From contig NC_057757.1 of assembly GCF_004010195.1 (NCBI RefSeq), positions 1,337,526 through 1,357,525 on the forward strand: 20,000 nucleotides of DNA, in the 5' to 3' direction. Position numbers and translations under genes: made by a program. Shown piece after piece: positions 1,274 through 18,444 of this stretch (position 1 is its first letter; each line of letters starts with the position of its first letter). The notes below the pieces were generated by a model. It worked only from the letters and a program-made list of their open reading frames with translations. It was not told the origin of the DNA and did no database searches. The DNA is from Chiloscyllium plagiosum. Lineage: Eukaryota.

Positions 1274-1411
1274 CGAAAGTGCGGTGCTGGAATAGTACAG
1301 CTGGTCAGGCAGCATCCGAGGAGCAGGAGAATTGACATTTCACCAGGTATGATGAAGCTCTTCACCATTCTTGACTCTGATCTCCAGCATCTGCAGTCCT
1401 CACTTTCTCCC
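1274..1411. mobile_element. Short PLE-derived insertion (two pieces of the element 3' end in opposite orientation) with 16-bp TSD
   Basis: gtatgttgatggatgt (1258-1273) and gtatattgatggatgt (1412-1427) flank it with 1 mismatch. The left part is the reverse complement of the same sequence type as 2970-3025; the right part resembles 3030-3070. Confidence 0.88.
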
Positions 1412-2268
1412 GTATATTGATGGATGTTGTTTATGTGGACTTCATAAAGTCTCACAGAAGAGACTGTTAGCTAAAGTGGAAGCCCCAAAAAATTGAGGGC
1501 AAATTACTGACATGGGATAGAAAATTGGTTGAGTGGCAGGAAGCAGAGAGTTGGAATAATGGGTAAGTACTCAAATTGCCAGGACATGAGGAGTGCTGTC
1601 AATCATTCACAATATTCATAAATTACTTTGATAATATTATTAAAAATCAAATATCCAAATTTTCTGATGACCTAAAATTGGGCAGTAATTGTAGACAGTG
1701 TTGATGGCGGCATAAAATTACAACAGGATATACACAGATTCGGTGAATTTGCAAAGTTGTGGCAGATGGATTTTAATAGAAGCAAATGTGAGGTTATCCA
1801 TTTTGGACTGGAAAAGAATGGATTGGGGCATTAATTTGGAAGGCAGAAAGTTAAATGCAGTGGATGTTCAATAAGATTTGTGAGTTCAGTTGACTAGCTC
1901 TTTAAAATGCCATGAACAAGGATAGAAAATAGTCAAGAAGGCTAATGGCATGCTGGCTTCCATACCATTCCCCCAGACCTCCCCCTCACTGAGGACGAAC
2001 AATCAGTCCTCAGCAAAGGACTCACCTTCATCCCGCTTTGCCCACGCATCAATGAATTTAATACACGCTGTGACGTCGAACACTTCTTCCGCCGCCTCCG
2101 CCTCTGAGCTTACTTTTACAATCAGTACTCCCGCCCACCTTCCGAGGACCCCTTTGTCCACCTCCAACACACTCCATCCACCTCGACACCCCGCGCTGGC
2201 CTATTACCCGCCTTCGACCTCTTCATTTCCAACTGCCACCAAGACATTAACGGCCTCAACCTCCCTCC

Positions 2269-2620
2269 NNNNNNNNNNNNNNNNNNNNNNNNNNNNNNNN
2301 NNNNNNNNNNNNNNNNNNNNNNNNNNNNNNNNNNNNNNNNNNNNNNNNNNNNNNNNNNNNNNNNNNNNNNNNNNNNNNNNNNNNNNNNNNNNNNNNNNNN
2401 NNNNNNNNNNNNNNNNNNNNNNNNNNNNNNNNNNNNNNNNNNNNNNNNNNNNNNNNNNNNNNNNNNNNNNNNNNNNNNNNNNNNNNNNNNNNNNNNNNNN
2501 NNNNNNNNNNNNNNNNNNNNNNNNNNNNNNNNNNNNNNNNNNNNNNNNNNNNNNNNNNNNNNNNNNNNNNNNNNNNNNNNNNNNNNNNNNNNNNNNNNNN
2601 NNNNNNNNNNNNNNNNNNNN
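2269..2620. other. Assembly gap (352 N)
   Basis: Run of N inside the PLE. Confidence 1.
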
Positions 2621-2940
2621 TCCCTCACCACCAGACGCCTGGAGAAAGAACACCTCATCTTCTGCCTCGGAACACTTCAACCCCGGGGCATCAATGTGGA
2701 CTTCACCAGTTTCCTCATTCCCCCTTCCCCTACCTCACCCCAGTTCCAAACTTTCAGCTCAGCACTGTCCCCATGACTTGTCTTACCTGCCTATCTTCTT
2801 TTCCACTTATCCACTCCACCCTCCTCCCTGACCTATCACCTCCATCCCCTCCCCCACTCACCTATTGTACTCTATGCTACTTTCTCCCCAACCCCACCCT
2901 CCTCTCATTTATCTCTCCACTCTGCAGGCACTCTGCCTCT

Positions 2941-2976
2941 ATTCCTGATGAAGGGCTTTTGCCCGAAAAGTCGATT
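2941..2976 (+). ncRNA. Minimal type I hammerhead ribozyme motif (family 1), stem III palindrome mutated
   Basis: attc CTGATGA A GGGC TTTT GCCC GAAA AGTC gatt. Core and stem II are intact; AAGT replaces the palindromic ACGT. Confidence 0.75.
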
Positions 2977-3683
2977 TTCCTGCTCCTCGGATGCTGCCTG
3001 AACTGCTGTGCTTTTCCAGCACCACTCTAATCTCGAATCTGGTTTCCAGCATTTGCAGTCCTTGTTTTTACCTCCATATCTAAAGGGCTGGATTTATGAA
3101 TGCAGATATTATGCTGCAGTTATACAACACACTAGTTAGACCCCACTTAAAGTACAATGAGCAGATCTTGGCACAACACCATAAGAAGGATACTTTGGCC
3201 TAGAGGGAGTTCAACGCAGGTTTGCAAGGATGTTACCTGGACTTCAGTGGTTACATTATGAGGAGGGATTAGGCAAATTAGGCCTTTATTCTCTAGAATT
3301 AAGAAGGTTAATTGGTGATCTAATTGAGGTGTTCAGGATATTAGCAGGGAAAGACAGGGTGGATAAAGATAAACTATTGCCACTGGTTGAAGATTCTAGA
3401 AATGGGGGCATAGTCTAAGAATTAAAGCCAGGCCATTCAGGAGAGATGTTAGAAAGTACTTCTACACACAAGGAGCACACAGGAGGTTTGGAACCCTCTT
3501 CCTCAAATGGTGGTCAATGCTCACTCAGTTGTTAAATTCCGACTTAGACAATTTTTTTTATTAAGCAAGGATTATGGCCCCAAGCCAGGCACATGGTGTT
3601 AGGCCACAGATCAGCCTTGATCTGACGGAATGGCAGAGTTGGCGCAAGGGGCTGCATGGTTTCCTCCTGTTCCTATACTCCTA

Positions 3684-4310
3684 GTCAGGAAGGCTAATAG
3701 TGTTGGCATTGGAGAGTAAGAGTAGGGGAGCAACTGTACAATGTGCTGATGAAACTACATCTGGAGCACCGCGAGCAGTTTTGCTCCCCTTATTTAAGGA
3801 AAAATATCATTTCATTGGAGGCAGTTCATAGAAGGCTCACGAGGGTGACCATTTGCATGGGGTAGAGTCTTATGAACAAAGGCTAAACAGGTTGGGACTC
3901 AATTTACTGGAAATTCCAAGAATGAGAGATGATCTCATTGAAATATATCAGATTCATAAGCGCTTGACAAGGTCAATGCTGACAGGATGTTTCCCCTCAT
4001 GGGAGGGTCTTGGACAAGAGGACACTGTCTCAGAATAAATGGGCACCAATTTCAGCCTGAGATGAGGAGGAATTTCTTCTCTGAAAGAGTTGGAACTCCT
4101 TGCCAGAGAGAGCTGTGGTGGCAGAGTCTTTGTGTATATTTAAGGCTGAGATAGAGAGATTCTTGATCAATGGAGGAAATAAGGGTTATGAGGAAAATGC
4201 AGGAAAGTGGGTGTGAGGCATGTCAGATCAGCCATGAGCCTATTGAAAGGCAGAGCAGGCTTGATGGGTCAAACCAAGTGCTCTGTTGCTATTTTAATGA
4301 TCTGATGGCC
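3684..4310 (+). mobile_element. CR1 copy A, 3' continuation to tail
   Basis: Resumes VRKAN where 1-970 stops (KDLEVIVH..QMQ). Has SYEQRLNRLGLNLLEIPRMRDDLIEIY and a CR1 3' tail near 4225-4305. Confidence 0.82.
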
Positions 4311-4314
4311 TTTT

Positions 4315-4425
4315 GATAGGAGATTTGAATATTCAGAAGGAATTTCTTAAGGGTTGGCATTAAGAAGTTGTTTCCATTTGTGTGAATACAACAACTAAGG
4401 CACTATAAATATCAGGTAGTCATTA
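4315..4425 (+). mobile_element. Older CR1 3' fragment C, left piece (continues at 5587)
   Basis: Colinear with 10025-10130, e.g. the shared gttgtttccatttgtgtgaataca. Confidence 0.75.
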
Positions 4426-5382
4426 GGGTTTGAGATATAAGGAGAGGCTGGATAAACCATGACTTACAAAGAACATTCCAGCACTGGAAGAGGCCCTTTG
4501 GCCCTCCAAGCCCATGCCGATCCAGATCCTCTATCTAAACCTGCCACCTATTTTCTAAGGATCTGTATCCCTCTGCTCCCTGCCCATTCATGTATCTGTC
4601 TAGATACATCTTAAATGACGCTATCGTTCCCGCCCCTACCACCTCCACTGGCAACGCATTCCAGGCCCCCACCAGCCTCTGCCTGAAGAACTTTGCACAT
4701 ATATTTCCCCCTAAACCTTTCCCCTCTCACTTTGAACTCGTGACCCCTAGTAATTGACTCCTCCACTCTGGGAAAAAGTTTCTTCTATCCAACCTCTCAT
4801 GATTTTGTAGGCCTCAATCAGGTCCCCCCTCAGCTTCCTTGATTCCAATGAAAATAATCCTAATCTACTCAACCTCTCCTATAGCTAGCACCCTCCATAC
4901 CAGGCAACATCCTGGTGAACCTCCTCTGCACCCTCTCTAAAACATCCACATCCTTTTGGTAATGTGGCGACCAGAACTGTCTGCAGTATACCTTTTTTCA
5001 CTGGAGAATAGGAGGCCGTGGGGTGACCTTATGGAAGTTTATAAAATCATGAGGGGCATAGATAAAGCCTTAGGGTTGGGGAGTTTAAACCTAGGAGGTA
5101 TAATTTTATGGTGAGAGGAGAATGATTTAAAGGGAATCTGAGGGGCAGCTTTTTCACACAGAGGGTGGTTCATATGTGGAGTAAACTGCCAGAGGAAGTC
5201 GTTGATGCAGATGCAGTTAAAACATTTAAAAGACATTTGGACGGGTACATGAATAGGAAAGGTTTGGAAGGATAGGGCCAAATGCAAGCAAATGGACTAG
5301 TTTAGCTTGCGAAACTTGGTTGTTATGGACAAGTTGAACCAAAGGGCCTGTTTCTGTGCTGTATGATTCTATGACTCAATGA
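4426..5382 (+). mobile_element. CR1 3' fragment D, interrupted at 4461-4990
   Basis: GLRYKERLDK (4426-4456) continues as LFSLENRRPWGDLMEVYKIMRGIDK (from about 4992). Tail gggcctgtttctgtgctgtatgattctatgactc. Confidence 0.85.
4461..4990 (-). mobile_element. CR1 3' fragment E, antisense, nested in D
   Basis: The reverse complement reads tactgcagacagttctggtcgccacattaccaaaaggatgtggatg (YCRQFWSPHYQKDVD) through to a CR1 tail (ggccaaagggcctcttccagtgctgg). Confidence 0.88.
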
Positions 5383-5573
5383 TTTGGAGATGCTGGTGTT
5401 GGACTGGGGTGTACAAAGTTAAAAATCACACACCACCAGGTTATAGTCCAACAGGTTTAATTTGAAGCACTAGCTTTCGGAGCGCTGCTCCTTCATCAGG
5501 AGCGATGCTCTGAAAACTAGTGCTTCCAATTAAACCTGTTGGACTATAACCTGATGTTGTGTGATTTTTAACT
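5383..5573. mobile_element. PLE-derived fold-back element (family 2) with perfect 13-bp TSD
   Basis: Inverted arms 5416-5491 and 5499-5573. tatgactcaatga occurs at 5370-5382 and 5574-5586. An extra 33 nt at the left is the probable element 3' terminus on the minus strand. Confidence 0.88.
5467..5500 (-). ncRNA. Minimal type I hammerhead ribozyme motif (family 2)
   Basis: Minus strand: c CTGATGA A GGAGC AGC GCTCC GAAA GCTA gtgc. Core intact with palindromic AGCT; predicted cleavage between 5471 and 5470. The 5' strand of stem I is clipped by the inversion junction. Confidence 0.78.
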
Positions 5574-5586
5574 TATGACTCAATGA

Positions 5587-5848
5587 GTAATATATCCCTT
5601 ACAGAATTCAGGAGAAATGTCTTTACTCAGACAGTTATGAGAATGTGGAACTTGTTCTCACAGGCAGTGACGAATATTGATGCATTTAAAGGTGAAGTTG
5701 GACATGCATGCGAGGGTAAAAGAATGAGAAAGATCTGCTGATCAGGTGAAATGAACAGGAGGGGTGGAAGGAGGATTGTGTGCTGCAGAAACACCAGCAC
5801 AGAGCAAGTGGGCAACATGGCCTCATTCCGAGATGCAAATGACTTTCT
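5587..5848 (+). mobile_element. Older CR1 3' fragment C, right piece and tail
   Basis: ttcaggagaaatgtctttactcagacagttatgagaatgtggaac (FRRNVFTQTVMRMWN), colinear with 10130-10380. Confidence 0.78.
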
Positions 5849-6254
5849 GAGCAGACTTTCAAGGGTGGGCCCATTTGGCCCCTCAAACCTCTTCCAGATC
5901 ACAGGAAACTCCACTCACCTGTCTGTCATTCCATATCTTCTTGATGCCCCCACCTGACAAAGTGGTGACAAGTCCCACTAGGCCACCATCAATAGACACA
6001 TAGCAACAGTGGGGCGGGGCAGGGTGTGGAGGGGGTGAACCAAGTCTGAAGTGCAGCAACGTGACGTGTTGGTTGCTGTTTACTGAACCTTGCACAAGGA
6101 CCTCTGTGACACACCCAGTAAACTGCACATGGTGATTCCAATCTGATCAAAGATCTAGTCAAGGACATTCTTGACTGCTCCACTTAACTGAAAATGTTGG
6201 TGCTTATTGTGTTTCTTTTGTCCCCACACCCGAATTCATGAGACAAGGTAAGAC

Positions 6255-6427
6255 GCAGAAACAGAAACTGAAATTACTGGAGAAATTCAGCAAGTCTGGT
6301 ACATAGATTTTGACTACCTGAAAGATTAACACAACTTTCTCTCCATAGACACAGTCAGACTTGCTGTGTGTCTCCAGCATTTTCTGCTTCTGTTCTTTAA
6401 CATCTCCAGCCGTACTTTGTTTTATTT
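6255..6427. mobile_element. Old PLE-like fold-back element (family 3)
   Basis: ctggagaaattcagcaagtctgg (6277-6299) is inverted relative to cagacttgctgtgtgtctccag (6356-6378). The element is absent from the duplicated copy near 10580. Confidence 0.65.
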
Positions 6428-6521
6428 TAAGATAACATTCAGTTGACTGACAGAAAAGTTTGCAAAACTCAGTTTTTTTCTAGCTGGTTATATGTTAAGT
6501 ATGAATTCAATTTAAGTGATA

Positions 6522-6607
6522 TCAGAAACACAGAACTCTGGAGAAACTCAGCAGATCAGGTCGCATCTGTGACAGAATTTGTTTTGAATCCAACTCTTCT
6601 TCAGAAC
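6522..6607 (-). mobile_element. Old family-3 fragment ending at a degenerate hammerhead 5' core
   Basis: ctggagaaactcagcagatcagg...; the minus strand starts agttCTGAAGAagagt. It lies at the position corresponding to 10662-10765. Confidence 0.6.
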
Positions 6608-7175
6608 TGCATTCTTTTTTAATACCGTTGACAAAGGGGAAAGAGAAATCTCTTGGTTTTATTCTCATTGTTTTTGTTCCACTTTATATCTGCTTGGGGA
6701 CCAATAATTTTATTTTTAAAGTAAGTTAGCAGCCGAGAGAGTTGCAAGGTTGCAGGATAGCTCAGTTTTTAAGTTCTGCAAGAGCTGAACTCGTGGTGTT
6801 CTGAATTGCTGATAATGAAAACCGGCAGGTTTTCCAACAGCATTGGCAGCCTCATTGCTGATGAGCCTCACTAGCTATCATTGGTTGAGTTGGGCACTTG
6901 GCATTCTACAGAACGGCCACACCCTGAAACTGTCAGTGAAGTTACCTGAAAGTGTGTTGGCAGTAGATTTGATGACAACTTCCAATAGGGTTTCGAACAT
7001 ATACTTGAAAAGGAAGAATTTGCAGAGCTGTGAAAAGAACAGTGAAGTTAGATTTATTGGATAGGTCATTCAACTGGCATGAACAGGAAGGATCAAACAT
7101 TGGGCAATAAGATTTCATATAAATTCACACAGACATGTATTTTTTATCCAATACACATATCTATTTCATGTATAT

Positions 7176-7382
7176 AGAACATAGGACATGACAGCGCAGG
7201 ACAGGCCCTTCGGCCCTCGATGTTGCGCCGACCTGTGGAACCAATCTGAAGCTCATCTATCCTAAACTATTCCATTCCCATCCATATATTTATCCAATGA
7301 CCATTTAAATGCCCTCTACTACTATTGAGTCTTCTACTATTGCAGGTAATGCGTTTCATTCCCCACTACTCTCTGAGTTAAC
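7176..7382 (-). mobile_element. CR1 3' tail fragment
   Basis: agaacataggacatgacagcgcaggacaggcccttcggccc is the reverse complement of a CR1 tail. Possible TSD tgtatat at 7169-7175 / 7383-7389. Confidence 0.8.
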
Positions 7383-7512
7383 TGTATATTGATATTACCC
7401 TATTTTTACATATATAACATTATTTATAGGTTCAAATATTAAACTAGAAGTAATTTATCTTTGACAATCATGCTTAATTGATTTAATTGAGTTTTTAAAA
7501 CAAATAAGTGCG

Positions 7513-7645
7513 TATGCAGGAGATCTGAAATAAAAACAAATTGCTTGTGAAATGTTTTGGTTCGGTAACTTGAAATGTTACCTCTGCTTCCTTCCCACAG
7601 ATGCTGCCGGATCTGCTGAGTTTCACCGGCAATTTCTGTTTTTGA
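7513..7645. mobile_element. Old family-3 PLE-like fragment with a short inverted left arm
   Basis: tgaaatgttacctctgcttccttcccacagatgctgccggatctgctgagtttcaccggcaatttctgttttt matches the arms at 6255-6427 and 10662-10838. Confidence 0.65.
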
Positions 7646-7649
7646 TTGG

Positions 7650-8190
7650 GTTTTTGGATGAGTAACAAAGAGAGTTGATCATGGTAGTGCCATTAATGTG
7701 ATCTGCACGGATTCAGAAAAGATGTTTGATAAAGTGCCAGATCACAGACACGTTCGCAAATTAGCAGCTCCTTGGAATAAAAGGGACAATGACAGCATGA
7801 CTGAGCAACAGGAAGTACAGTAGCGGGGATTGGGTATTTGTCAGACTGCAGGGTTGTACACACAACAATTTCCCAGGCATTGCCAATAGGACCACTGCCT
7901 TCCTTGATTAATGCTCCTGACTTGCACAGAGGGTGGGCTTTCAACATTTGCCTATGACACAAAACCTTGCGAACTCTGAAGAGAAGTGATAGATTTCAAG
8001 AAGGCACAGGATGATGGGTTTGGAAGACAGATGGCAGATTAAATTTAATTCTGAGAAGTGTAAAGTGATGCATTTTGATAACAAGTACGAAGAAGGGCAT
8101 TTTAAAATAAAGAATCCAATTGTAAAGGTTGCGCAGATAGACCTAAGCATAAACCATTGAAGCAGACAGCTTAGGTTGAGAAAGTGGATA
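7650..8190 (+). mobile_element. Highly decayed CR1 RT fragment
   Basis: VTKRVDHGSAINVICTDSEKMFDKVPD from about 7662, and DRWQIKFNSEKCKVMHF at about 8026-8076. Confidence 0.78.
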
Positions 8191-8197
8191 ATTAGGC

Positions 8198-8262
8198 AGT
8201 TAACTCTTTCTGTCTCCACGGAACTGCCAGACCCACTGAATTTCTCCAGCGCTTTGTTTTAA
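8198..8262 (+). mobile_element. Old family-3 PLE-like 3' fragment
   Basis: gttaactctttctgtctccacggaactgccagacccactgaatttctccagcgctttgtttt. Confidence 0.6.
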
Positions 8263-8739
8263 GAGTGATCTACTCAGTTGTCTGAAACCATGACGGAGAA
8301 AGTTCCGAACCACCTTCTCAGAGTAATTAAGGATGAGCGATAAATCCAAGGAAAGAGATGAATGGCTGTCTGGTAGTGAGTAATGTAAAGCATTGTTCTG
8401 TGACATCATGGTGAAATAACTGACCTGTCAGTAACCATCCTTCAGTTTAAAATGCCAGTTTCCAACAGCATCCGCAGCACGGCTAGTGGAAATAGCTCTG
8501 GATAAATGTATCTTCGGAAAAGCTGACGTGAATCATTCCCAGGACTTGTTAAGTTGGCATGCATGAATACTATGTGATACCAGAAATGGAGAGCCAGTTG
8601 TTCAGCTCGGAATGGAATAGAAGTGCATGTGACATCTTAGGAAGGTGTAATTAAATAGTCACAATATATAAAGATTCAATGTCAACTTTTAAAAAAAAGG
8701 GTGGTGGGAGGTTAATATATTTAACTGTAATAAGTCAGC

Positions 8740-8866
8740 CCACAGCACGTGGACTGCAGCGATTCAAGATGGCAGCTAACCACCACCTTCTCAAGAGGCA
8801 AACAGGGATGGTCTATTAATGCTGGCCAGCCAGCAACACCCAAATCCCACAAATGAATAAAGAAAA
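8740..8866 (+). mobile_element. 3' tail of the LINE family seen at 18605-19215
   Basis: gtggactgcagcgattcaagatggcagct is identical at 8749-8777 and 19120-19148; ends atgaataaagaaaa. Confidence 0.85.
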
Positions 8867-9069
8867 GTGAGGGAATCTGTATATGTGCAACAATGTGAAC
8901 AAAATAATGTACATTGACAACAACGTCAATAGGACTTCTGTAACATGCCAGTGGTTTACCATCTGGTCCCTCCAATTCGAGGCTACTGAGCTGAATTACT
9001 CACCCAAAGGATCAAACCTTTTCCCACTGTATAGAATCCCAATGGATCAAACCTCCTCCCAATCACTCT

Positions 9070-9225
9070 CAAACGGATACCCTGGTACAATATTTATTCC
9101 TCAGATAGTATCACTAACAACAGATTATTTGATTGTCTATGGGAGTTTGCTACACAGATACTGGCTCTTACAACAGGAGACTGATGACTCTTCAAATTCA
9201 CTTCATTCCTTGGCATATCTTAAAT
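9070..9225 (+). mobile_element. DeuSINE (SacSINE1-like) core fragment, old
   Basis: cctggtacaatatttattcctcagatagtatcactaacaacagattatttg...tatgggagtttgctacacagatactggct resembles the Deu domain. Confidence 0.6.
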
Positions 9226-9959
9226 GCTGTAAAACCACTATCGGAATTATTTCTCATTTATGTTCTTCTCTGAAGAACTACTTTTTTTTTACCATACTTT
9301 GTGTTAATTCTTCTTTGAATTCTACATTGACGTTTCTACCAGAGTTTACCAAATAAATTAATCTGTAATTACCATTCTGCTAATAGTGGTGGTGCTGTTG
9401 TCCCACAGTATTGCCTCTGTCTGCAACTCATTGGAGAGAGAGAGAGATACTCCACACAATTTATAGTGAATGCCACCAAAAGATGTACAAGGAATGAAGG
9501 AAAATGATGTCATGGCCAGACAATGATACTGCCATGTACTGGAAGCTAGTTTAATGGCTTTTTTGGCAGCTGGAGGTGTGGGATATCAAGTGCAGTTACC
9601 AAATTCCCCTGGGCACAAGTTCCATGGCTCACAGGTAGTACAGTGTCCAGGTGCTCCAACTCACCACTCTTTGGCGCCAGCCTCCTTACCCTGAGCTGGT
9701 GACACCAGTATATGCATGCGCGGAGGCTTCCTGCGGGTTCTCGTTGCCAGCCAATGTCACGTCCCGCAAGTGGAGAGGGCACTCAGGACTAGTTATCATA
9801 GAGCAACCCTCCCACCACACAAGCTTTCAGTTCTGTGATGTATGTCGAGTCTCCTCAAACTCAGTCCAAACACAACCCAACTCCTGAGTGAAGTGCGAAC
9901 CTAGCAGATCGCACAATGTGAGATTAAATCAAACAAGCTTAGTCTGGTTTGCAGTTCTA

Positions 9960-10380
9960 CATATCAGGAAAGGCTGAACAGGCTGACATTCTTTTCTGCA
10001 ATAAAGTGAAGGCTGAGGGTTAAAGGATAGAAGACGTTAATATTCAGAAGGGGTTTTCACAGGGTTGGCGTAAAGACGTTGTTTCCATTTGTGTGAATAC
10101 AGTAGCTATGACACTACAAATATCAGGCACTAATAAATCCCTTGGGGGATTCAGGAGAAACATATTTACTCAGAACGTGGAACTTGCTCCCACAGGGAGT
10201 CACTGAGGTGCCTCATGTTGACGCATTTAATGGGGAAGATGGATAAGCACATGAGGGCAAAAGGGTGAGAAGGACATGCTGATGGGGTGAGGTCAAAGGT
10301 GGGAAGAGGTGGAGGGGATGGAAGGAGCAGAAACACCAGCACAGAGCAGAGGCATGATTTCAAGCTGCCAATATCTTTCT
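9960..10380 (+). mobile_element. Older CR1 3' fragment (paralogue of fragment C)
   Basis: ERLNRLTFFS at 9968, then colinear with 4315-4425 plus 5587-5848. Confidence 0.78.
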
Positions 10381-10765
10381 GAGCAGATTGTCATTTGGCC
10401 CCTTCAGACTTCTTACAGATTTGTCATCTTTCTTTCATTCGGAATTTTCTTACTGCCTTCACCCAACAGAAATGGCTGAACCAGTTCAAATATGCGGAAA
10501 GACCTGGGCAAGGACATACCAATCCGCTGCAGTGAGCTTAAAATGTCAGTGCTTATTGATTTTTTTTTACAACTGAATGAATAAGATAACCCTGCAGAAA
10601 ATCCCACGTGAGATCTTTCTGGCTGGTTATATATTAAGTATGGATTCAATTTAAATGGTTTTGAAACAAATACGGAGAACGCTGCAGGAAGTCAGCAGGT
10701 CAGGCACCATTTGTGGAGACAGAAACAGAGTTAATGTTTCGAGTCTGCAATACTCTTCTTCAGAG
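10025..10765 (+). repeat. Second copy of an old direct duplication (first copy about 4315-6607, interrupted)
   Basis: Non-TE-looking flanks align: 6149-6209 vs 10498-10558 gives 45/61 ungapped; 6477-6518 vs 10616-10657 gives 38/42; 5916-5965 aligns with 10424-10474. Confidence 0.85.
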
Positions 10766-10850
10766 TAATTAATGTCTTTCTCTCCACAGATGCAGCCAGA
10801 CCTGCTGACTTCATGCAATGTGTTTTGTATTTGTTTCAGACTTTTAGTAG
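10662..10850. mobile_element. Family-3 PLE-like fold-back element
   Basis: tgaaacaaatac (10662-10673) pairs with gtatttgtttca (10827-10838); gaagtcagcaggtc pairs with gacctgctgacttc. Confidence 0.75.
10728..10765 (-). ncRNA. Decayed minimal hammerhead motif (family 3)
   Basis: Minus strand: CTGAAGA A GAGT ATTGCAG ACTC GAAA CATT aactc. ACAT is consistent with a CpG-decayed ACGT. Confidence 0.62.
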
Positions 10851-11089
10851 CTGCCTTTCTTTAAGAGTTATCATTTTTATTTTCAAATTCCCTTATTCCT
10901 CCAGCCCACCTTGCCCACCATCCTACTCCTGGAGATTTCAGAACTCTCCACCCAATCTCTGTGTTCTGAAAGGGCTAGTCATTGTCCTTAAACACATCAG
11001 CAATGCTGTTGAAGGACATATCACAGCTCAAATTTACCTCCGAAAAGCATCAGCAGAAGAGGGTGCTGGAATGTAGGGAGGAAGAGGAA

Positions 11090-11425
11090 AAGACTTGCAT
11101 CACAATTTCAGGATGTCCCAAAACACTTTACAGTCAATGAAATACTTCTTATTGTTGAAACAGGAAATTTAGCAGCTAGTTTGTGCATAGCTCCCACAAA
11201 CAGCAATGAGATAACGATCAGGTTATCTTGTTTTTTTTGGTGATGTTGACATGAGAGTCATGCTGGTAGATCCCTGGATTAATATCTCATTTAAAAAATA
11301 CAACACTGAAACACTCCACTATTGCACTGGGTGAGTCAACCTGGATTATGTGGTGAAGTCTCTGGAGTAAGACTTGAACCCACATGTCTGAATTGGGTAA
11401 GAGAGAGTGCTACCTGCTAAATCAT
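11090..11425 (-). mobile_element. DeuSINE (SacSINE1-like), near full length, decayed
   Basis: Pol III B-box gtgggttcaagtc (reverse complement of 11371-11383), Deu core ctcccacaaacagcaatgagataacgatcaggttatc, tail gacttgcat...caggatgtcccaaa. Confidence 0.72.
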
Positions 11426-12147
11426 AGTTGATAGAGGAAGTTTTCTTACATTTAGACTTATTTGTCGTGGAGATAGATGCTTGACAAGATTTTTCTTTTT
11501 ATTGAGGTGTTGCAGAGTTGCCGTTTTGGGGATTGGTTCAGTTGGTCATGGTTGGTGTCATAATCTCAGTGGATTCTCCTGAGCTACAGAGCATTTAGGC
11601 TGGTTGGCTGTTGGATTTGCACATGCTACTAGGCATGTTAGAGAGCCCTAGGGTATGGAATGGAAATAAGTAAAGCAGAGACTAGGTCCCTGAACAAGGA
11701 GCTTGTGTGGGCCAGAATATTGGCTGAGGGTCAAAATTATGCTTGTGTTTTGGCATCTTCTCCCAGTGATCATGAATAGTCTTACTTGGGTGGGAATGCT
11801 GTTTAAATATCTGTAAAGAATGGGGTCCAAGTGACAAAACCTCCCAATCAGGAAAGTTGTCATGTGCATTGGTCAAATGGGTAAATCTGATTGTTGAGCA
11901 AGGTGGATCTGAGGTGATTGATAACTAAGAGAGAAGGGGGCAACTAATCCTGAGGAGGATCAAGCACTGAACTAAGATCTCTGTAATACTGAAAAAAATG
12001 CTTGGGAGTTTACTCATGCAGCAGGGCCCTTAATGACTCTAATTTATTCATTTACATTTGCTGACAAGTATCATGTTTGAAAGCTGTCAACGTTCACCTT
12101 AAACTCACACAAGAACAGCAGTTTGGTTAGGGTCAGCAACTCTGTTG

Positions 12148-12303
12148 ATCCCCAGGGCATCAATGTGGACTTCAACAGCTTCCTCATTTCCCCTTCCCCC
12201 ACCTCATCTTATTCCTGATGAAGGGCTTTTGCCCGAAACGTCAATTTTGCTGCTCGTCGGATGCTGCCTGAACTGCTGTGCTCTTCCAGCACCACTGATC
12301 CTG
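12148..12303 (+). mobile_element. Family-1 PLE 3' fragment with internal deletion and 10-bp TSD
   Basis: Matches 2681-2737 joined to about 2938-3030. aactctgttg occurs at 12138-12147 and 12304-12313. Confidence 0.9.
12211..12246 (+). ncRNA. Minimal type I hammerhead ribozyme motif (family 1), intact core and palindrome
   Basis: attc CTGATGA(12215-12221) A GGGC TTTT GCCC GAAA CGTC(12242) aatt. The first stem I pair is lost (A at 12243 where the 2973 copy has G). Confidence 0.8.
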
Positions 12304-12609
12304 AACTCTGTTGGTCACCTACCTGCCACCCACTGCTCCCATTCTTGCAATTGGCTAGCTGGCCTGCCCAGCTTAGGAGGCCTCACATCCCTCCTGCACT
12401 AAGTGAACCTTGTTACCAACTGGATGTTTACAGCTCCCTCTCCTATACACTAATTGTCATTATGCAACTGGTAATGAAAAGCCTTCAACGAAGAGAAAAT
12501 CAACACATTTGTACAATCTGAATGGCATTTTCCCTTCCTAGGTCAGGCTCACAGCTACTTCTGTGATGGACACTTGCAATAGTCACTTGATGGTTGTCCT
12601 ACTCCTACT

Positions 12610-12680
12610 TAGGATCTTACAGTACAGGGGAGGCCATTCGATCCACTGTGCCTGTGCTGGCTCGTTAAAAGCCAGTTGTA
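12610..12680 (-). mobile_element. CR1 tail remnant
   Basis: tacagtacaggggaggccattcgatccactgtgcctgtgctggctc. Confidence 0.55.
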
Positions 12681-12929
12681 CCAGCAAACAAACATGAGTC
12701 AGCACCTTTACAGGGGACATGAATTCTGTGGAACAATAAATAATGAATCTGACAAAGCCCATGCCACCCCATTTCATCTGTACATTATAGATCATTAACT
12801 GGGATTATCAGCACATCTAAATTGTTCATTCTCACAATAAATTTTTCAGAATTGAATGTGATGACAATGGCCTTCAGTTCTACAGCCTCATGAACAAAAT
12901 TCCCAGCCACTTCAAAGCAGCAACAACAG

Positions 12930-13125
12930 ACATGTTAGGCAAACGGCTAAACATTTGAACAGGTCAGTTTGAAGGGAGTTGTAAAGTGAAATAGAGAAAG
13001 GATAGAGAAGTTTAAGGAGTAAATTTTAGAGTCTAGTTGAAGGGATAGCTGCCAGTAGTGACGGAGGGGGATTGGATTAAAGTTCAGAATTGGAGGAGAA
13101 ATCTCCAGTACAGGGCTGGGGTACG
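12930..13125 (-). mobile_element. Very old LINE 3' remnant (L2-like)
   Basis: Purine-rich gaagggagttgtaaagtgaaatagagaaagg...aaattttagagtctagttgaagggatagctgcca resembles antisense L2 3' ends; weak. Confidence 0.4.
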
Positions 13126-13224
13126 ATAGACCACACAGCTATTTTGTCTGTGTAAGCTTCCACAAGTTTATGAATGGACTCACCAGTGGACAAAAATTAT
13201 TTTAAATAAGGGAGACTTGGAAAA

Positions 13225-13340
13225 TGAAACCCAAAACAGAAAAATCTGTACACACTCAGCAGGTTGGTCTGTCCTGTGAAGAGAAAAACAACGAAGTTAG
13301 TGTTCGGGACAATGTCTCTCGCTTTCCCAGAAACCTGACG
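13225..13340 (-). mobile_element. Very old family-3 PLE-like fragment
   Basis: aaaacagaaaaatctgtacacactcagcaggttggtctgtcctgtgaagagaaaaac..gttagtgttc parallels 10664-10740. Confidence 0.5.
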
Positions 13341-13594
13341 CTTAAGTGCTGAACACAAACCAATTTACAGCAAACTTAGTACTTTCAAAGTTGCAATGGG
13401 ACAGTGCACTTCCACATGTCATGCCCTATCAAACAACAAGACTTTAGAGATGTTTATTAAGGAGTAAGTATTAATCAGGACAAAGGAGAGAAAACCTCTG
13501 TTCCTCTTGAGTAATGCCATTTTGTGTCCCTCTGAGATGGCAGATTAGTTTTACAGCTAATTTTTAAGATAACGTCTCTGACTGTGCGGCATTT

Positions 13595-13867
13595 CTTTGG
13601 ATTTGGGTACGTATGTGAATGGGAAAGGTTTGGAGGGATATGGGCAAAAGTGAGGACAGAGTTTAGATCAGAGTGGTGCTGGAAAAGCACAGCAGGTCAG
13701 GCAGCAACCGAGGAGCAGGAAAATCGACATTTCAGGCAAAAGCCCTTCATCAGGAATATGGGCCAAGCACAGGAAGGTGAGACTAGTTTAGTTTGGGAAC
13801 ATGGTCAGTGTGGACTGGTTGGACCGAAGGGTTTGTGTCCATGCTGTATGACTCTATGATTCTATAA
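13595..13867 (+). mobile_element. CR1 3' tail, interrupted by a PLE fragment
   Basis: gaatgggaaaggtttggagggatatgggc...gactagtttagtttggg...gctgtatgactctatgattctat, the same type as 5250-5380. Confidence 0.85.
13646..13755 (-). mobile_element. Family-1 PLE 3' fragment starting at the hammerhead, 8-bp TSD
   Basis: Minus strand: tc CTGATGA A GGGC TTTT GCCT GAAA TGTC gattttcctgctcctcgg... atatgggc occurs at 13638-13645 and 13756-13763. Confidence 0.88.
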
Positions 13868-14394
13868 GTTTCTGGAGTGCAGTTTGAATGCACAAACCAC
13901 TGCCTCAGAGCATGGGAGTGCAACCCACTGAGCAAAAATCCACACACTTTGTGCCTGTGTGGAATGGATGAGGCATGACTGTGATTCCACCCACAGTATG
14001 ATAGCCTGCTGACAGACATCCAGCCCAATTCATCCTTCCAAGAGAGTTTTGGGAAGAAAACTGTCAGAACTGTGCACTGTCCATTTGTAAATGGATCCTG
14101 GGCTATTGGACTGAAGCAGCTGAGGATGACTGCTTTCATTTGAAATCTGCACAGGGTCTGTTTCTGGTGATGGTCACTGATTAATGCTCTTGAGAAGAAA
14201 TGCAAAGGGATCACCCTTCACCACCAGAGGGATTTAGGTTAATGGGATTAATATATTATCTGAGATTATCTAAATAAATGCAGGCCACTGATCAAAAAGG
14301 GGAACTTCCTACATCTGTGCCACATAGTAACACGTAACTATCATCAGTAATGAAGGTCAATGTCTGACCATATCCATCAGTTTTCAAACGTGGT

Positions 14395-14670
14395 GATAGG
14401 TGATTTTCAGTTGAGACATTAAATCAAGGCATTCTTTAAAGACTGTTTTCTCCAGCCAATTGCAGGAGGAATTCTTCCAATGCCCTGGACCAATTTTATC
14501 ACTCGACTAATATTACAACACAAAAAATATAGGTGGCTGTGGGCTATTTCTCTCATCCGCTGTTTGTGTGACCTTGCTGCGTGCTAAATAATTGCCATGT
14601 TTGTCTACATAATTGTTATTGTTAGACCTGAAACATTCTGCAATGTCCCTTAGGCGTGGAAGGCTTTGTG
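14395..14670 (+). mobile_element. DeuSINE core and tail, old
   Basis: ttttcagttgagacattaaatcaagg...ccctggaccaattttatcactc...gctgtttgtgtgaccttgctgcgtgctaaataattgcc. Confidence 0.62.
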
Positions 14671-15446
14671 CCTTGTGGTCTGACAAGTTCAAAATAACTT
14701 TTAAATTCAAAACGCTGCAGCTGCATTAAATGTACTTCTCAGAACATACTATTGTTTGGTACCTTGATTGAAGTGACTGGTTAGGTATTCTGGGTCCATA
14801 TACACGGACGTACTGTTTATAAATAAACCATACAAGTACTAAATCTTCTTTTTAGTCAGATGATCTGCCCGGAGGGATGAGGTTTGGGGACACAGCAGAA
14901 TCCCATTTGAGGGGTGTCATTGTTTATTGAAACAGGGAGATTTTCTGTTTCCTGTTTGAAAACAGAACAGGTGAAATTGGCTTTCACATGCAGTTTGGTT
15001 TGCTGTTTCTCAGCTTGTGCAACCACTGTCCAAGTCAAACTTATAGACAGAAAAGGACAGCACCCACCCCACCTCAGAAACTCACAAGGCAGGAGGGACA
15101 TGAAAGTGATTATTGTGTTCGCAGGCAAACACAAGAACTTGTGAAAGGGGAATGGAGACAACATCTGGGACTCATTCCGAAACAACACTTGCATAATTAC
15201 ATTCCAAACATAGAGATGGCAGACTGATTGATAACACTGTCGTTCACTACTACGATAGAATGCCCTGCTACTTTACTCAGTTTGCCTCTGTTGACTCTTT
15301 CTTCCTTATTTTGCATGCTCAATATTCTTTCTTTACCTATTTAAATGAAAGGACATTGGAGTAAATGCAAGTTTTTTTTTTAAAAAAAAAGGTTTATAAC
15401 TGCCTGTCCAGCTAGTGAGTTATTTTGCCTTGGAGGATTGAACTTC

Positions 15447-15761
15447 GGATGGCACGGTGGATCAGTGGTTAGCACTGCTGCCTCACAGCGCCAGGGACCC
15501 AGGTTCAATCCCAACCTCAAAAGACTGTCCGCGCGGAGTTTGCACATTCTCCCCGTGTCTGCGTGGGTTTCCTCCGGGTGCTCCGGTTTCCTTCCACAAT
15601 TCAAACATTTGCAGGTCAGGTTAATCAGCCACGCTAAATTGCTCGTAGTGTTAGGTACATTAGTTGGAGGGAAATGGGTCTGGGTGGGTTACTCTTCAGA
15701 GGATTGGTGTGGACTTGTTGGGCCGAAGGGCCTGTTTCCACACTGTAGGGAATCTAATCTA
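15447..15761 (+). mobile_element. HE1-type V-SINE, full length
   Basis: tRNA-derived head (tggatcagtggttagc; ggttcaatccc), V-domain tctccccgtgtctgcgtgggtttcctccgggtgctccggtttcc, CR1-like tail gggccgaagggcctgtttcc...atctaatcta. Confidence 0.93.
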
Positions 15762-15864
15762 CTTAAGTTGACCCACCTTTGCACCTCATGTCAGACTCTC
15801 AAAGTTTCAGAATTTTGGAATTTCCCTACAAAATCTTAAAATCTACAAGTGTCTGGAGTCAAGC

Positions 15865-15985
15865 CTGTTGGATAAGGGGGTAATTATAATCAAAAGGTAG
15901 GAGAATGAAGTTGAGACACAGACCGGTCACCATCTAATTGAATGACAGAACAGGCTCCTGGGACTGAATGGCCTCCACCTTTGTC
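15865..15985 (+). mobile_element. Old CR1 tail remnant
   Basis: gaatgaagttgagacacagaccggtcaccatctaattgaatgacagaacaggctcctgggactgaatggcctcc. Confidence 0.6.
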
Positions 15986-16014
15986 TCAAAGCCGAAGGTC
16001 GGAAATTAGCTGGC

Positions 16015-16031
16015 TGCCAGTAGGGGGCATT
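16015..16031 (+). promoter_or_regulatory. Candidate CTCF site
   Basis: tgCCAGTAGGGGGCAtt fits the CCASYAGRKGGCR core. Motif match only. Confidence 0.45.
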
Positions 16032-16044
16032 TGTGAGCAGATAA

Positions 16045-16250
16045 AAACAGGTATATGCGCAGGATCACACAGCAATAAGCTGAGGAAGAACAAGGGTGAA
16101 GTCCCTGATGTCACTGCTGACAGTTATCCAATAGCAATAAGAAACAGATTAACTGCTTGTTGTTATTTCTTTTGTGAGAACTTGCTGTACAGACACTAGC
16201 TGCTGTATTTTCTACACTGCACTTCAGAAACAGCTCTAAAGTGTTATGGA
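16045..16250 (+). mobile_element. DeuSINE core fragment, old
   Basis: gaagaacaagggtgaagtccctgatgtc...aaacagattaactg...ttttgtgagaacttgctgtacagacactagctgctgtatttt. Confidence 0.55.
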
Positions 16251-16299
16251 GGTTACTCTTCTTATTTTGCCCCCGAACTTTCATTAAAAATGCCACTGA

Positions 16300-16390
16300 A
16301 TAGGAGCTGTAAGATGTAAGACAGACAAGGGCCATTCAGCCCATCAAGCTGGCTCAGCCAGTCAATGAGATCATGGTTTACCTGATAATT
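16300..16390 (-). mobile_element. CR1 tail remnant
   Basis: ggccattcagcccatcaagctggctcagccagtcaatgagatcatgg. Confidence 0.65.
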
Positions 16391-16771
16391 CTTAAAAGAC
16401 AGGGCATTAGTGCATCATTCCTACCTCACTTACCGTTGGTAAATTTACCTAAAGTTACGAAGAAGAGCTTGAAATCAGTGTTGCCTGCGACACTGATCCC
16501 TTTTTTCCTCATTCTTCTGCATTTTGTCAGAGGCATTCACAATAAACATTGGCCTTGCTGGAAATGTTCACATCCCATGAAAGAATCATTAATAAAGGGC
16601 TCAATCTTAAGTTGCAATTCACCACTGCAGGACGGCAAACTAATGGTCTACACACTCTTTCACCATAAGTAGCAGCAACTGGTTCTGGGAATAAGACTGA
16701 CTGTGGGACAAGATAAAGAAAATCTTCAACAGCTGCCAGCAGCCCCCTCCCCCTCCTCATCCACTCACTAT

Positions 16772-17360
16772 CTTAGAAACATACAGCATGGAGCAAGATA
16801 TTCAGTCCGTCGGATATGTATCTGCCCCCTTGGAATGAGCTATCCAATTAGTTTCACCACACCCCATAGACCTGTCCCTTATTCACTCAATTCCCTTTTG
16901 AAAGTGCCTTTTAAATTTGCTTCCACTGCCCTTTCAGATCACAACTACGCCCCGCCTGAAAGAAAGTTTCTTTGCGCCTCTGTTTCTCTCCTCAGTAATC
17001 TTAAATGGGTTCCTGTAGTTATTGGGCAAAAGTGAGGACTGGAGATGCTGGAGATTAGAGTAAAGTGTGTGGTTCTGGAAAAGCACAGCAGGTCAGGCAG
17101 CATCCGAGGAGCAGGAGAATTGACGTTTCAGACATACATCGGTCAGGATGTATGTCCTGACGAAGGGTTTTTGCTCAAAATGTCAATTCTCCTGCTCCTC
17201 AGATGCTGCCTGACCTGCTGTACTTTTCCAGCACCACACCCTGTAGTTACTGACACTTCTTGGCAGTGGAAACAGTTTCAGCCTACCCGGTCTTAACAAA
17301 TTTTTTGCTTCCTGCAAACCCGATTTCATCTCCTCCAACCTTCTCTATCCTAAGGAAAAC
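16772..17360 (-). mobile_element. Old CR1 3' fragment, interrupted by the 17025-17239 hairpin
   Basis: tagaaacatacagcatggagcaagatattcagtcc (tail), aattcccttttgaaagt..gcttccactgccctttcag, continuing ctgacacttcttggcagtggaaacagtttc after the insert. Confidence 0.6.
17025..17239. mobile_element. Family-1 PLE fold-back element with 13-bp TSD and degenerate hammerhead
   Basis: Arms 17067-17128 and about 17177-17239. cctgtagttattg (17012-17024) and cctgtagttactg (17240-17252) flank it. CTGACGA A GGGT TTTT GCTC AAAA TGTC lies at 17157-17184. Confidence 0.9.
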
Positions 17361-18233: not shown

Positions 18234-18444
18234 GGGTGGCTCAGTGGTTAGCACTGCTGCCTCAAAGCGCCGGGGGGGGGGGGGAACAGGGTTTGATTCC
18301 AACCTCAGGTGACTATTTGTGTACAGTTTGCGTGTTTTTCCCATATCTGCGTGGGTTTGCTCCAGAGGTTTGGTGGATTGGCCATGCTAAATTGCCCATA
18401 GTGGCCAGGGATATGTTGGCTATGGGTTAGCCATGGGAAATGCT
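18234..18444 (+). mobile_element. HE1-type V-SINE, internally deleted and 3'-truncated
   Basis: ggtggctcagtggttagcactgctgcctcaaagcgcc..., tctgcgtgggtttgctcc, ggattggccatgctaaattgccc. Has an expanded poly-G run. Confidence 0.88.

Follow-up and report, generated by a model that had tools for sequence, protein, structure and literature searches.

The closest described relatives of the elements reported here are the Penelope-like retroelements (PLEs), for which the comparison draws on parts of the papers cited. Those bearing an endonuclease show 5' truncation, an adjacent inverted 5'-truncated copy with palindromes at the inverted junction, a one-sided tail of 30-40 bp, variable target duplications and microhomology joins, and the site of truncation is variable (Arkhipova et al. 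2013, PMC3846280; Craig et al. 2021, PMC8557442). Metazoan PLEs carry minimal hammerhead ribozymes with the core boxes, an extra base after position 9, a palindromic helix III stub and a short helix I. These are mostly solo motifs from truncated PLEs, opposite-strand pairs also occur, and the role proposed for them is cleavage and circularisation (Cervera and De la Pena 2014, PMC4209133). In the Poseidon element of Anolis carolinensis (PAc) the hammerhead lies about 100 nt upstream of two internal reverse transcription starts that make the tail, and the ribozyme is copied uncleaved; the available parts of the paper describe where genomic copies end on the 3' side but mention no constant 5' boundary at helix I (Frangieh et al. 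2024, PMC11167929). Transcription of the Drosophila virilis Penelope begins within the pseudo-LTR under the control of an upstream copy's 3' UTR; the start is followed by 46 nt and then by a 75-nt intron reaching as far as helix I (Schostak et al. 2008, PMC2377424). Non-LTR retrozymes are short hammerhead-bearing units from PLE ends and are defined by tandem arrays (Li et al. 2026, bioRxiv 10.64898/2026.07.22.740005). How PLEs come to be inserted head-to-head, and what their hammerhead is for, are stated as open questions (PMC3846280, PMC8557442, PMC11167929).

The shark copies share the insertion features listed above for endonuclease-bearing PLEs and, from the metazoan hammerheads, the core boxes, the extra base, the helix III stub and the occurrence as solo motifs and opposite-strand pairs; their helix I may be short as well. 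The arrangement of hammerhead and tail is that of PAc, and copying through the uncleaved ribozyme probably is too. However, where truncation is variable in the PLEs described, their short copies mostly have one edge, 1-6 nt before the core, and this main edge is 32 nt upstream of the cut site. The start proposed here would, as in D. virilis, lie inside the pseudo-LTR and depend on an upstream copy's 3' UTR. A splice acceptor at the edge was rejected for family A, because there is no AG at 2939-2940. Unlike the retrozyme arrays, the copies are dispersed single or head-to-head units. The literature searched, which left most subscription papers and Repbase outside, holds no report of a fixed 5' edge at a PLE hammerhead, although Fig. 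S2 of PMC11167929, on anole genomic coverage, may bear on this.

The copies lie in a window of 20,000 nt, the whole stretch of Chiloscyllium plagiosum NC_057757.1 that was analysed. Positions relative to the hammerhead are counted from C3 of its core as 0, which is 2945 in the long copy. All pieces derive from the 3' ends of PLEs and carry a minimal hammerhead, in agreement with the first-pass annotation, which had recognized hammerhead-bearing retroelement ends. Evidence for a PLE-type reverse transcriptase (RT) is indirect, the RT core being inside the window's N gap: over its N-terminal 101 aa the ORF is 80-84% identical to proteins that carry RVT_1, those at 84% and 80% being RT-bearing and labelled Chiloscyllium punctatum. 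The C-terminal peptide matches PLE-type loci, among them L065, which scores above the GIY-YIG cut-off and is 48% identical to the 51-aa C-terminal piece over 29 aa. This piece has no Pfam match and no alignment to a distant relative (P0005, 36% identical) with a Neptune-type cysteine linker, a region that falls into the N gap of the long copy. A Pfam search of three PLE fragments returned nothing, a protein atlas search gave no usable match, and the family A pattern had no match in viral or metagenome contigs.

The hammerhead is in a terminal repeat, as in endonuclease-bearing PLEs. The one-sided 33-nt extension of the 5.4-kb copy and the 3' ends at 3025-3033 and 3062 fit a PLE tail of 30-40 bp with two 3'-end zones, and both the adjacent inverted 5'-truncated copy and target duplications are present in the window. 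Duplications of 10-16 bp exceed the null maximum for four insertions, those of 8 bp and 6 bp do not, and a search of family C found none. Core boxes, the extra base after position 9, stem II and the palindromic 15.2-16.2 are all present, and the ATG inside the core opens no long frame. The motif is intact at 12215-12242 and decayed in most other window copies. Rfam gave no hammerhead match at E<=1; its microRNA matches, hairpin-driven and below their cut-offs, were set aside.

In seven of the nine measurable independent insertions the junction falls 1-6 nt upstream of the core (Table 1); an internal rejoin and a degraded copy are counted among the seven. The window holds 11 independent insertions, of which two (6258-6394 and about 7515-7647) are unmeasurable. 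The binomial p is 3e-6 to 4e-11 if uniform spans of 60-300 nt are assumed. About half of the insertions are head-to-head and none is head-to-tail, so that a tandem hammerhead array is absent from the window.

Table 1. Features of the PLE copies, in coordinates of the window
Feature	Position	Strand	Remarks
Family A head-to-head insertion, deletions in both arms	1274..1411	.	centre about 1347-1349, -1/+1 of core; tail on right arm
Long family A copy	1965..3072	+	ORF N-terminal part 1965-2268 (one stop), 352-N assembly gap, ORF C-terminal end, then 3' part
3' part of long copy	within 1965..3072	+	3' UTR rich in pyrimidines, then hammerhead and tail
Pile-up site, 5' strand of helix I	2941..2944	+	putative first template-RNA bases; loose ends, depth step, joints
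Minimal hammerhead core, 4-bp stem II	2945..2972	+	motif scan, fold; cut site after 2972
Two 3'-end zones, PLE tail	3025..3072 (about 3025-3033 and 3062-3072)	+	loose ends behind 3025, 3033, 3062
Family B fold-back	5383..5573	.	core 5499-5471 on minus strand; one-sided tail 5383-5415; 13-bp exact target duplication
Degraded family C fold-back	6258..6394	.	junction lost through deletion; edge unmeasurable
Family C arm	6521..6605	-	paralogous duplicate of 10.66-kb insertion
Degraded family C fold-back	7515..7647 (left limit approximate)	.	left arm mostly deleted; edge unmeasurable
Family C copy without core	8199..8263	+	start about 3 nt before cut site; counter-example absent from earlier list
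Family C fold-back	10662..10838	.	core 10763-10733 on minus strand; junction -1 to -5; second arm from near cut site
Family A copy	12148..12303	+	59 nt of ORF end fused to hammerhead module; core 12215-12242; 10-bp exact target duplication
Degraded family C arm	13228..13325	-	ends about -3/-4 from decayed core; fits pattern; absent from earlier list
110-bp family A copy	13646..13755	-	core 13753-13726; 8-bp duplication 13638-13645 and 13756-13763
Family A palindrome	17025..17239	.	core 17157-17184; tail on left arm

The first-pass annotation had proposed a pile-up of junctions at the core's 5' edge, which holds both here and in reads and contigs of related organisms. Its junction 1 nt before the core at 5.4 kb is correct: -1 is the last position of the antisense arm, and stem II contains the start of the second. 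The 110-bp copy does start at -2, as claimed, or at -4/-5 when the 2-3 nt shared with the target are counted. At 17.1 kb the centre placed 13 nt before the core is that of a small secondary hairpin (10 bp, 17131-17156). Both long arms, however, break at -2, with a 6-nt spacer (17149-17154) and a centre at about -5.5 by manual reading, while the automated repeat search puts the break at -4; the target duplication is 10 bp exact, or 13 bp with 1 mismatch. The 12.2-kb copy rejoins at -4 to -6, near the core as described, but its own 5' end is in the ORF end, about 265 nt upstream. The ends at 6.6 and 10.76 kb are both at -1 to -5, as had been noted, but they represent one duplicated insertion and not two events, since 4315-6605 and 10026-10764 are collinear paralogous blocks (65-80% identity) in which the pieces begin at the same point after a homologous flank. 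The supposed strand switch after an antisense GAAA arm at 1.34 kb reads instead as a palindrome. Aligned with the sense core and the 3' part that follows, its spacer outscores 1977 of 2000 shuffles, and its target duplication is 16 bp with 1 mismatch (1258-1273 and 1412-1427). The long copy, absent from the earlier list, is a counter-example, its 5' end being in the ORF N-terminus, far from the ribozyme; its 6-bp duplication is not above null. A second arm was sought at 13.33 kb, and no alignment was obtained.

Public reads (X21) and contigs (X1, X10) of two related organisms were mapped to the long copy. The loose ends and joints given here are the best supported, with 135 further joints and 1515 further loose-end entries, and X1 and X10 are saturated. 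Loose ends, strand switches and tandem joints all pile up at 2941-2943, 2-4 nt before the core. Loose ends at 2941 number at least 1478 contigs in X1, at least 1444 in X10 and 230 reads in X21; those at 2942, at least 454 and 472 contigs; those at 2943, at least 378 (X1). Six of the seven opposite-strand joints among those listed have one side at 2941-2943. Raw-read depth falls five-fold, from 894 at 2941-2956 to 179 at 2925-2940, and is about 89 over the ORF end; the loss is about 6% per nt between 2957 and 2925 and 0.3% per nt further upstream. Depth also drops from 2166 to 894 between 2989 and 2941, so many pieces either have their start within the core or downstream of it, or are cross-mapped from other families.

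The edge could be an artifact if only core-bearing pieces had been noticed and alignments stopped at 2941 where subfamilies diverge upstream of a conserved ribozyme. The 2941 loose-end consensus does end in the upstream letters of a second subfamily, two cases in the window (6.6 and 10.76 kb) are one event, and the "skip" joints with unknown letters, which were excluded from the deletion counts, may be unaligned 3' UTRs. However, at 2941 the loose ends reach a high median length, 255, and differ widely from one another (agreement 0.33), and their unique flanks are long. In simulation one continuing subfamily accounts for about 10-15%, and smooth truncation of a divergent subfamily would give an agreement of about 0.8. 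Depth is low over the conserved ORF end, and target duplications fix the ends of window copies independently of alignment. An artifact is thus extremely improbable. The loose ends at 2978, with a median of 41-62, an agreement of 0.5 and a consensus equal to the element sequence, illustrate how a subfamily artifact appears and were attributed to divergence between subfamilies.

The clustering is real; the cause first proposed for it, the ribozyme, is probably wrong. Simple self-cleavage had been rightly dismissed at the outset. The suggestion was that the enzyme stalls or switches at the core on account of the ribozyme fold or of cleavage, be it in a dimer or in a partner RNA. It finds some echo in the second arms, which often begin at ribozyme helices: at 2978-2980 in the family A joints, in stem II for the 5.4-kb copy and close to the cut site for the one at 10.76 kb. 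The start of the 8199 copy fits as well. A stall would, however, be expected on the 3' side of the fold, and an enzyme moving 3' to 5' would at -4 already have copied it. A dimer, too, is cleaved after position 17 (PMC4209133). The monomer fold of family A is no better than shuffles (z-scores -1.5 to +0.5 for its pieces), with little beyond the 4-bp stem II; helix I, read from the sequence as 2 pairs, a mismatch and 1 pair, is absent from the predicted folds. As a weak point, 2973 is not among the loose ends listed. Ribozyme mutants of the anole element had no effect in vitro (PMC11167929). Among 56 PLE-type copies of other hosts with the same core motif, measured by a different procedure than the shark copies, 3 end within 6 nt of the core and 52 beyond 12 nt. 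In the largest control family, edges spread over -22 to -213, and two 3-copy families have common edges at -21/-22 and -24/-25. The control set has 47 unmeasurable singleton loci and 3 singletons added manually to families 0 and 1; 3 of 18 paired loci, with an upstream flank under 20 nt, were left out of the pair tally. As there is no pile-up with the same core motif elsewhere, the fold alone does not set the edge. The stall idea is largely disfavoured and must be considered quite improbable.

In families A and C the edge falls on the base that opens helix I, and in B it is found at -1 or further out. A longer precursor might be trimmed from its 5' side up to a protein-bound or folded hammerhead and then copied to its end, so that the ribozyme domain and no promoter would fix the 5' end of the RNA; some 5' exonucleases are halted by RNA structure. 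The anole protein binds the region that holds the hammerhead and assists cleavage, according to the parts of PMC11167929 available. The control figure of 3 in 56 and the weak monomer fold make such trimming unlikely.

Most likely, most short copies begin just before the hammerhead since the template RNA starts there, and not because the ribozyme halts copying. A peak at the RNA start is a case in which the first-pass annotation had itself held the pattern to be real but not due to the ribozyme. Run-off of reverse transcription at the 5' end of the RNA is probably the best explanation. The template's 5' end would coincide with the opening base of helix I, 4 nt ahead of the core, or adjoin it; most simply, transcription would start there under the influence of the 3' UTR of a partial copy situated upstream. 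The enzyme would prime on nicked DNA and begin internally at the tail, as the two 3'-end zones suggest and as has been demonstrated for the anole PLE (PMC11167929). Copying would then pass the uncleaved hammerhead and run off about 85-130 nt later, the tail being only that far from the 5' end of the RNA, which is why the enzyme would fall off after the hammerhead. The resulting short, fixed-end cDNA would resemble the strong-stop DNA of LTR elements. Its free end could anneal to the target through 2-3 shared bases (110-bp copy), snap back on itself to give head-to-head forms, or jump to another position on the RNA (12.2-kb copy; tandem 3025-to-2941 joints). The products are observed; their order is conjectural. 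The ribozyme would be a passenger at the front of the RNA, complementarity in helix I or stem II at most guiding the register of snap-back. Helix I may set where the second fold-back arm begins: for a cDNA ending at 2941 the nearest register is 2976/2977, and the second sides of the listed joints vary (2978, 2979, 2980, 2984, 3013), those at 2978-2980 being the commonest.

Run-off is favoured because the edge is sharp, with a plateau upstream, and because one site serves truncations, strand switches and tandem joints. In the available accounts, the length of the anole insertion product tracks the template's 5' end while ribozyme mutants leave insertion unchanged (PMC11167929), and promoter and transcription start are within the pseudo-LTR (PMC2377424). 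Several observations count against it. Initiator-like motifs, judged by the general initiator consensus, number 6 in 2740-2950, and that at 2941 is just one of them. A cap-templated extra G is absent from the loose-end consensus at 2941, which ends in C. Three unrelated families have about the same offset (-1 to -5), for which a promoter model must invoke shared architecture, whereas a fold- or protein-linked boundary explains it directly. RNA molecule starts (X21) show no pile among those listed, a poly(A) single-cell library being unlikely to show one.

In D. virilis the start is about 120 nt before the hammerhead, as the available parts of PMC2377424 and PMC4209133 indicate, so that a start at helix I is not general.

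The same edge might be inherited from short master RNAs, that is, SINE-like elements of 85-130 nt, or hairpins, transcribed alone and copied in trans. RNA reads cover core-bearing sequence about 15 times more deeply than the ORF end, at least 12 contigs of X1 and 10 of X10 contain head-to-tail 3025-to-2941 joints, and PLE-derived non-autonomous repeats have been described (bioRxiv 10.64898/2026.07.22.740005). However, the junctions vary between copies, both in the window and among the listed joints; the four short family A copies, a small sample, have four different junctions and not one common internal structure, as a SINE- or MITE-like family would. The edge recurs in three unrelated families, the family A reads are polymorphic at several sites, and a reason for the first master's start would still be needed. 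Master RNAs are therefore improbable, and to speak of "non-autonomous units", as was done before, is an overstatement: since junctions differ between copies, most units look built at insertion.

Head-to-head palindromes have been argued to need an antisense template (PMC3846280), and their share in the window fits an antisense RNA with its 3' end at this point that primes itself, as for rotifer PLEs. This would leave unexplained the single-arm copies with target duplications and the same start base (13646-13755), and the anole enzyme copies a sense template (PMC11167929, in the part available). Self-priming of this kind is very improbable as the source of the edge.

As elements they belong to a known kind, and the window copies are dead. 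In a very abundant family, a 5' edge that is sharp to the base preserves a fossil record of where the template ended, and it makes models of sense run-off, antisense self-priming and ribozyme stalling separable. It is conceivable, though somewhat doubtful, that the hammerhead is the very first element of the shark PLE RNA. Transcription would then start on helix I, and cleavage would clip a 32-nt leader, with the catalytic core and the cap, as a switch of RNA fate, while uncleaved RNA would give strong-stop-like cDNA that snaps back on helix I into the head-to-head form. If this is true, one mechanism would account for solo hammerheads, palindromic insertions and tandem formation, and an antisense template would be unneeded.

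The window consists of repeat-rich vertebrate DNA. Its longest piece of a Penelope-like element (PLE), a family A copy, opens with 101 codons, including one stop, that are 84% and 80% identical to reverse-transcriptase proteins labelled Chiloscyllium punctatum, which makes a carpet shark the probable host. An assembly gap of 352 N (2269-2620) inside this copy hides most of the ORF. A Pfam search with the C-terminal coding stretch gave no match; the stretch resembles PLE-type loci of other hosts, one of which has a GIY-YIG domain above the cut-off. Two related copies of one repeat, which we take to be SINE-like with a tRNA-like head, lie at 15456-15760 and 18235-18440. Besides the long copy, the window holds four short relatives of it (family A), a single fold-back of family B and six pieces of family C. 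Several PLE pieces appear inserted in LINE-type debris such as the decayed reverse-transcriptase fragment at 135-503 (RVT_1 match, E 5e-5, below the cut-off). The window copies show target duplications, head-to-head arms and one-sided tails, as do endonuclease-bearing PLEs (PMC3846280; PMC8557442).

PLE copies of the window and their junctions, relative to C3 of the hammerhead core (position 0, 2945 in the long copy; negative, upstream)
Copy	Position	Organization	Junction
Long copy	1965-3072	101 codons, N gap, short coding stretch, pyrimidine-rich 3' UTR, minimal hammerhead core (2945-2972), about 100 nt more	
1.34-kb copy			-1/+1
5.4-kb copy			-1
10.76-kb copy			-1 to -5
12.2-kb copy			-4 to -6 (internal)
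13.7-kb copy			-2 to -5
17.1-kb copy			about -2 (both arms)

The first-pass annotation held that element breakpoints cluster at the ribozyme. The clustering is confirmed by seven of the nine measurable events in the window, out of 11 independent events in all (binomial p <=3e-6 for uniform spans of 60-300 nt), and by a pile-up at 2941-2943 in contigs and reads of related organisms. The fold-back centre placed 13 nt from the core in the 17.1-kb copy is that of a secondary hairpin, and the centre of the long arms falls between -4 and -5.5. This perfect 10-bp hairpin (17131-17156) lies at the palindrome centre; in it the reverse complement of the palindrome's spacer replaces the stem II region of the left arm, and it looks like a second templated repair. 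The 1.34-kb junction is indeed at the core, but the locus is not a strand switch following antisense sequence: it is a palindrome in which each arm has suffered deletions. Of 2000 shuffles of its spacer, 1977 align less well to the sense core than the spacer itself does. Both corrections tighten the clustering. The 6.6-kb and 10.76-kb pieces do have junctions near the core, but they represent a single insertion within an old local duplication rather than two cases. The duplication is seen as collinear blocks of 65-80% identity (4315-6605 and 10026-10764), the first of which later gained more insertions, including the family B fold-back. Two counter-examples had been passed over: the long copy, and a family C piece (8199-8263) whose start lies some 3 nt upstream of the hammerhead cut site and which is possibly a copy of cleaved RNA or the result of a later deletion. 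Also unlisted were a degraded copy at 13228-13325, which supports the clustering, and two copies too degraded for their junctions to be placed.

Outside the window, two DNA runs (organisms A and B) supplied contigs that were aligned, together with raw RNA reads, to 2621-3080 at 80% likeness. Contigs favour unique flanks, and RNA reads derive from dispersed copies. Among the best-supported positions listed, where DNA-run counts are saturated and thus lower bounds, alignments stop on the 5' side most often at 2941 (at least 1478 and at least 1444 contigs, 230 reads), followed by 2942 (at least 454 and at least 472 contigs) and 2943 (at least 378, in contig set X1 of one organism). Reads cover the core to a depth of 1368; the figure is 894 for 2941-2956, 179 for 2925-2940 and roughly 89 at the end of the ORF, a drop of about 6% per base at the edge versus 0.3% per base further upstream. 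Six of the seven strand-switch joints listed have one side at 2941-2943, with the partner mostly at 2978-2980. Head-to-tail joints among those listed connect 3025 back to 2941; this 85-nt unit (2941-3025) is joined in at least 12 and at least 10 contigs in the two organisms, possibly as seeds of retrozyme-like arrays. Loose ends on the 3' side, at 3025-3033 and 3062, match the PLE tail. None at 2973 is among the best-supported positions listed, which is weak as a negative.

The main confound is a second subfamily that diverges upstream of 2941 and whose letters appear in the loose-end consensus. In simulations, one continuing subfamily accounts for 10-15% of the 2941 loose ends, and smooth truncation of a divergent subfamily gives an agreement of about 0.8, which several different subfamilies would reduce. 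The loose parts at 2941 have a median length of 255 and an agreement of 0.33 (0.31-0.32 at 2942-2943). Those at 2978 are short, agree at 0.5 and read as element sequence; they exemplify the artefact of subfamily divergence, and the 2941 ends are unlike them. That the edge is an artefact is extremely improbable.

The pattern is thus real, but the ribozyme is probably not its cause. The annotation had proposed that the ribozyme fold, or cleavage in a dimer or partner RNA, sets the stop, a proposal that we now consider quite unlikely. For family A, the fold of the monomeric hammerhead region is no stronger than that of shuffled sequence (z -1.5 to +0.5), with little beyond stem II, and the reverse transcriptase would already have passed through the fold before -4. 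Whether it takes place in a monomer or in a dimer, cleavage puts the end after the position equivalent to 2972 (PMC4209133).

Control families in other hosts also argue against this proposal. A generic-core scan gave at least 121 metagenome loci, 80 with full flanks; most have stem II and helix I complementarity, and GIY-YIG was found in upstream frames of two of five scanned above the cut-off and of a third below it. Seven families have at least three copies each (56 in all); family homology stops no more than 6 nt from the core in three of these copies and runs beyond 12 nt in 52 (3/56 versus 7/9 in the window, Fisher p 6e-6, the two sets being measured differently). Ends in the largest family are scattered from -22 to -213, with at most 3 of 18 uncensored ends in any 6-nt interval, and the same dispersed positions are where its inverted arms meet. 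Family 4, with an ORF end like that of the shark element, has none of four copies ending within 6 nt and one at -8. Two three-copy families (L029, L056, L100 and L060, L072, L095) have sharp common 5' edges at -21/-22 and -24/-25, respectively, which are candidate RNA starts. Because control families mostly end elsewhere, the motif does not by itself fix the edge; in families that have an edge, the edge-core distance is family-specific.

The shared edge is probably set by copying that runs off the 5' end of the RNA. This reading is favoured by the weak fold, the order of reverse transcription, the cleavage position, the anole PLE data and the pseudo-LTR promoter. In the anole PLE, copying begins at two internal sites, which give rise to the tail, product length tracks the template's 5' end, and ribozyme mutants have no effect (PMC11167929). 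The D. virilis promoter lies within the pseudo-LTR (PMC2377424). Some 85-130 nt would separate the tail from the 5' end of the RNA, and copying would yield a short run-off cDNA, whose end would then meet the target through 2-3 shared bases, snap back, or jump. For a cDNA ending at 2941 the nearest snap-back register would be 2976/2977, the helix I partner, near the commonest joints. The ribozyme sequence may shape the product solely through this register, in which three of four bases match. Both 17.1-kb arms appear to have the same variant base in the core, in keeping with a shared template.

Several points weigh against run-off. The RNA start at helix I is one that we infer, and in D. virilis transcription starts some 120 nt farther upstream. 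The UTR holds six matches to the initiator consensus, that at the edge among them, and the loose-end consensus has no cap-derived G. The offset is, moreover, common to three unrelated families, which would be explained directly if a protein- or fold-protected RNA boundary set the 5' end, an unlikely alternative overall; an origin from short master RNAs is slightly less likely still, and an antisense template is very unlikely.

PLE elements, solo minimal hammerheads and palindromic junctions are already described. The literature searched yielded no report of a 5' edge fixed at helix I's first base, a point to which a supplementary figure in PMC11167929 may be relevant. The pattern brings a step of PLE replication within reach of a test.
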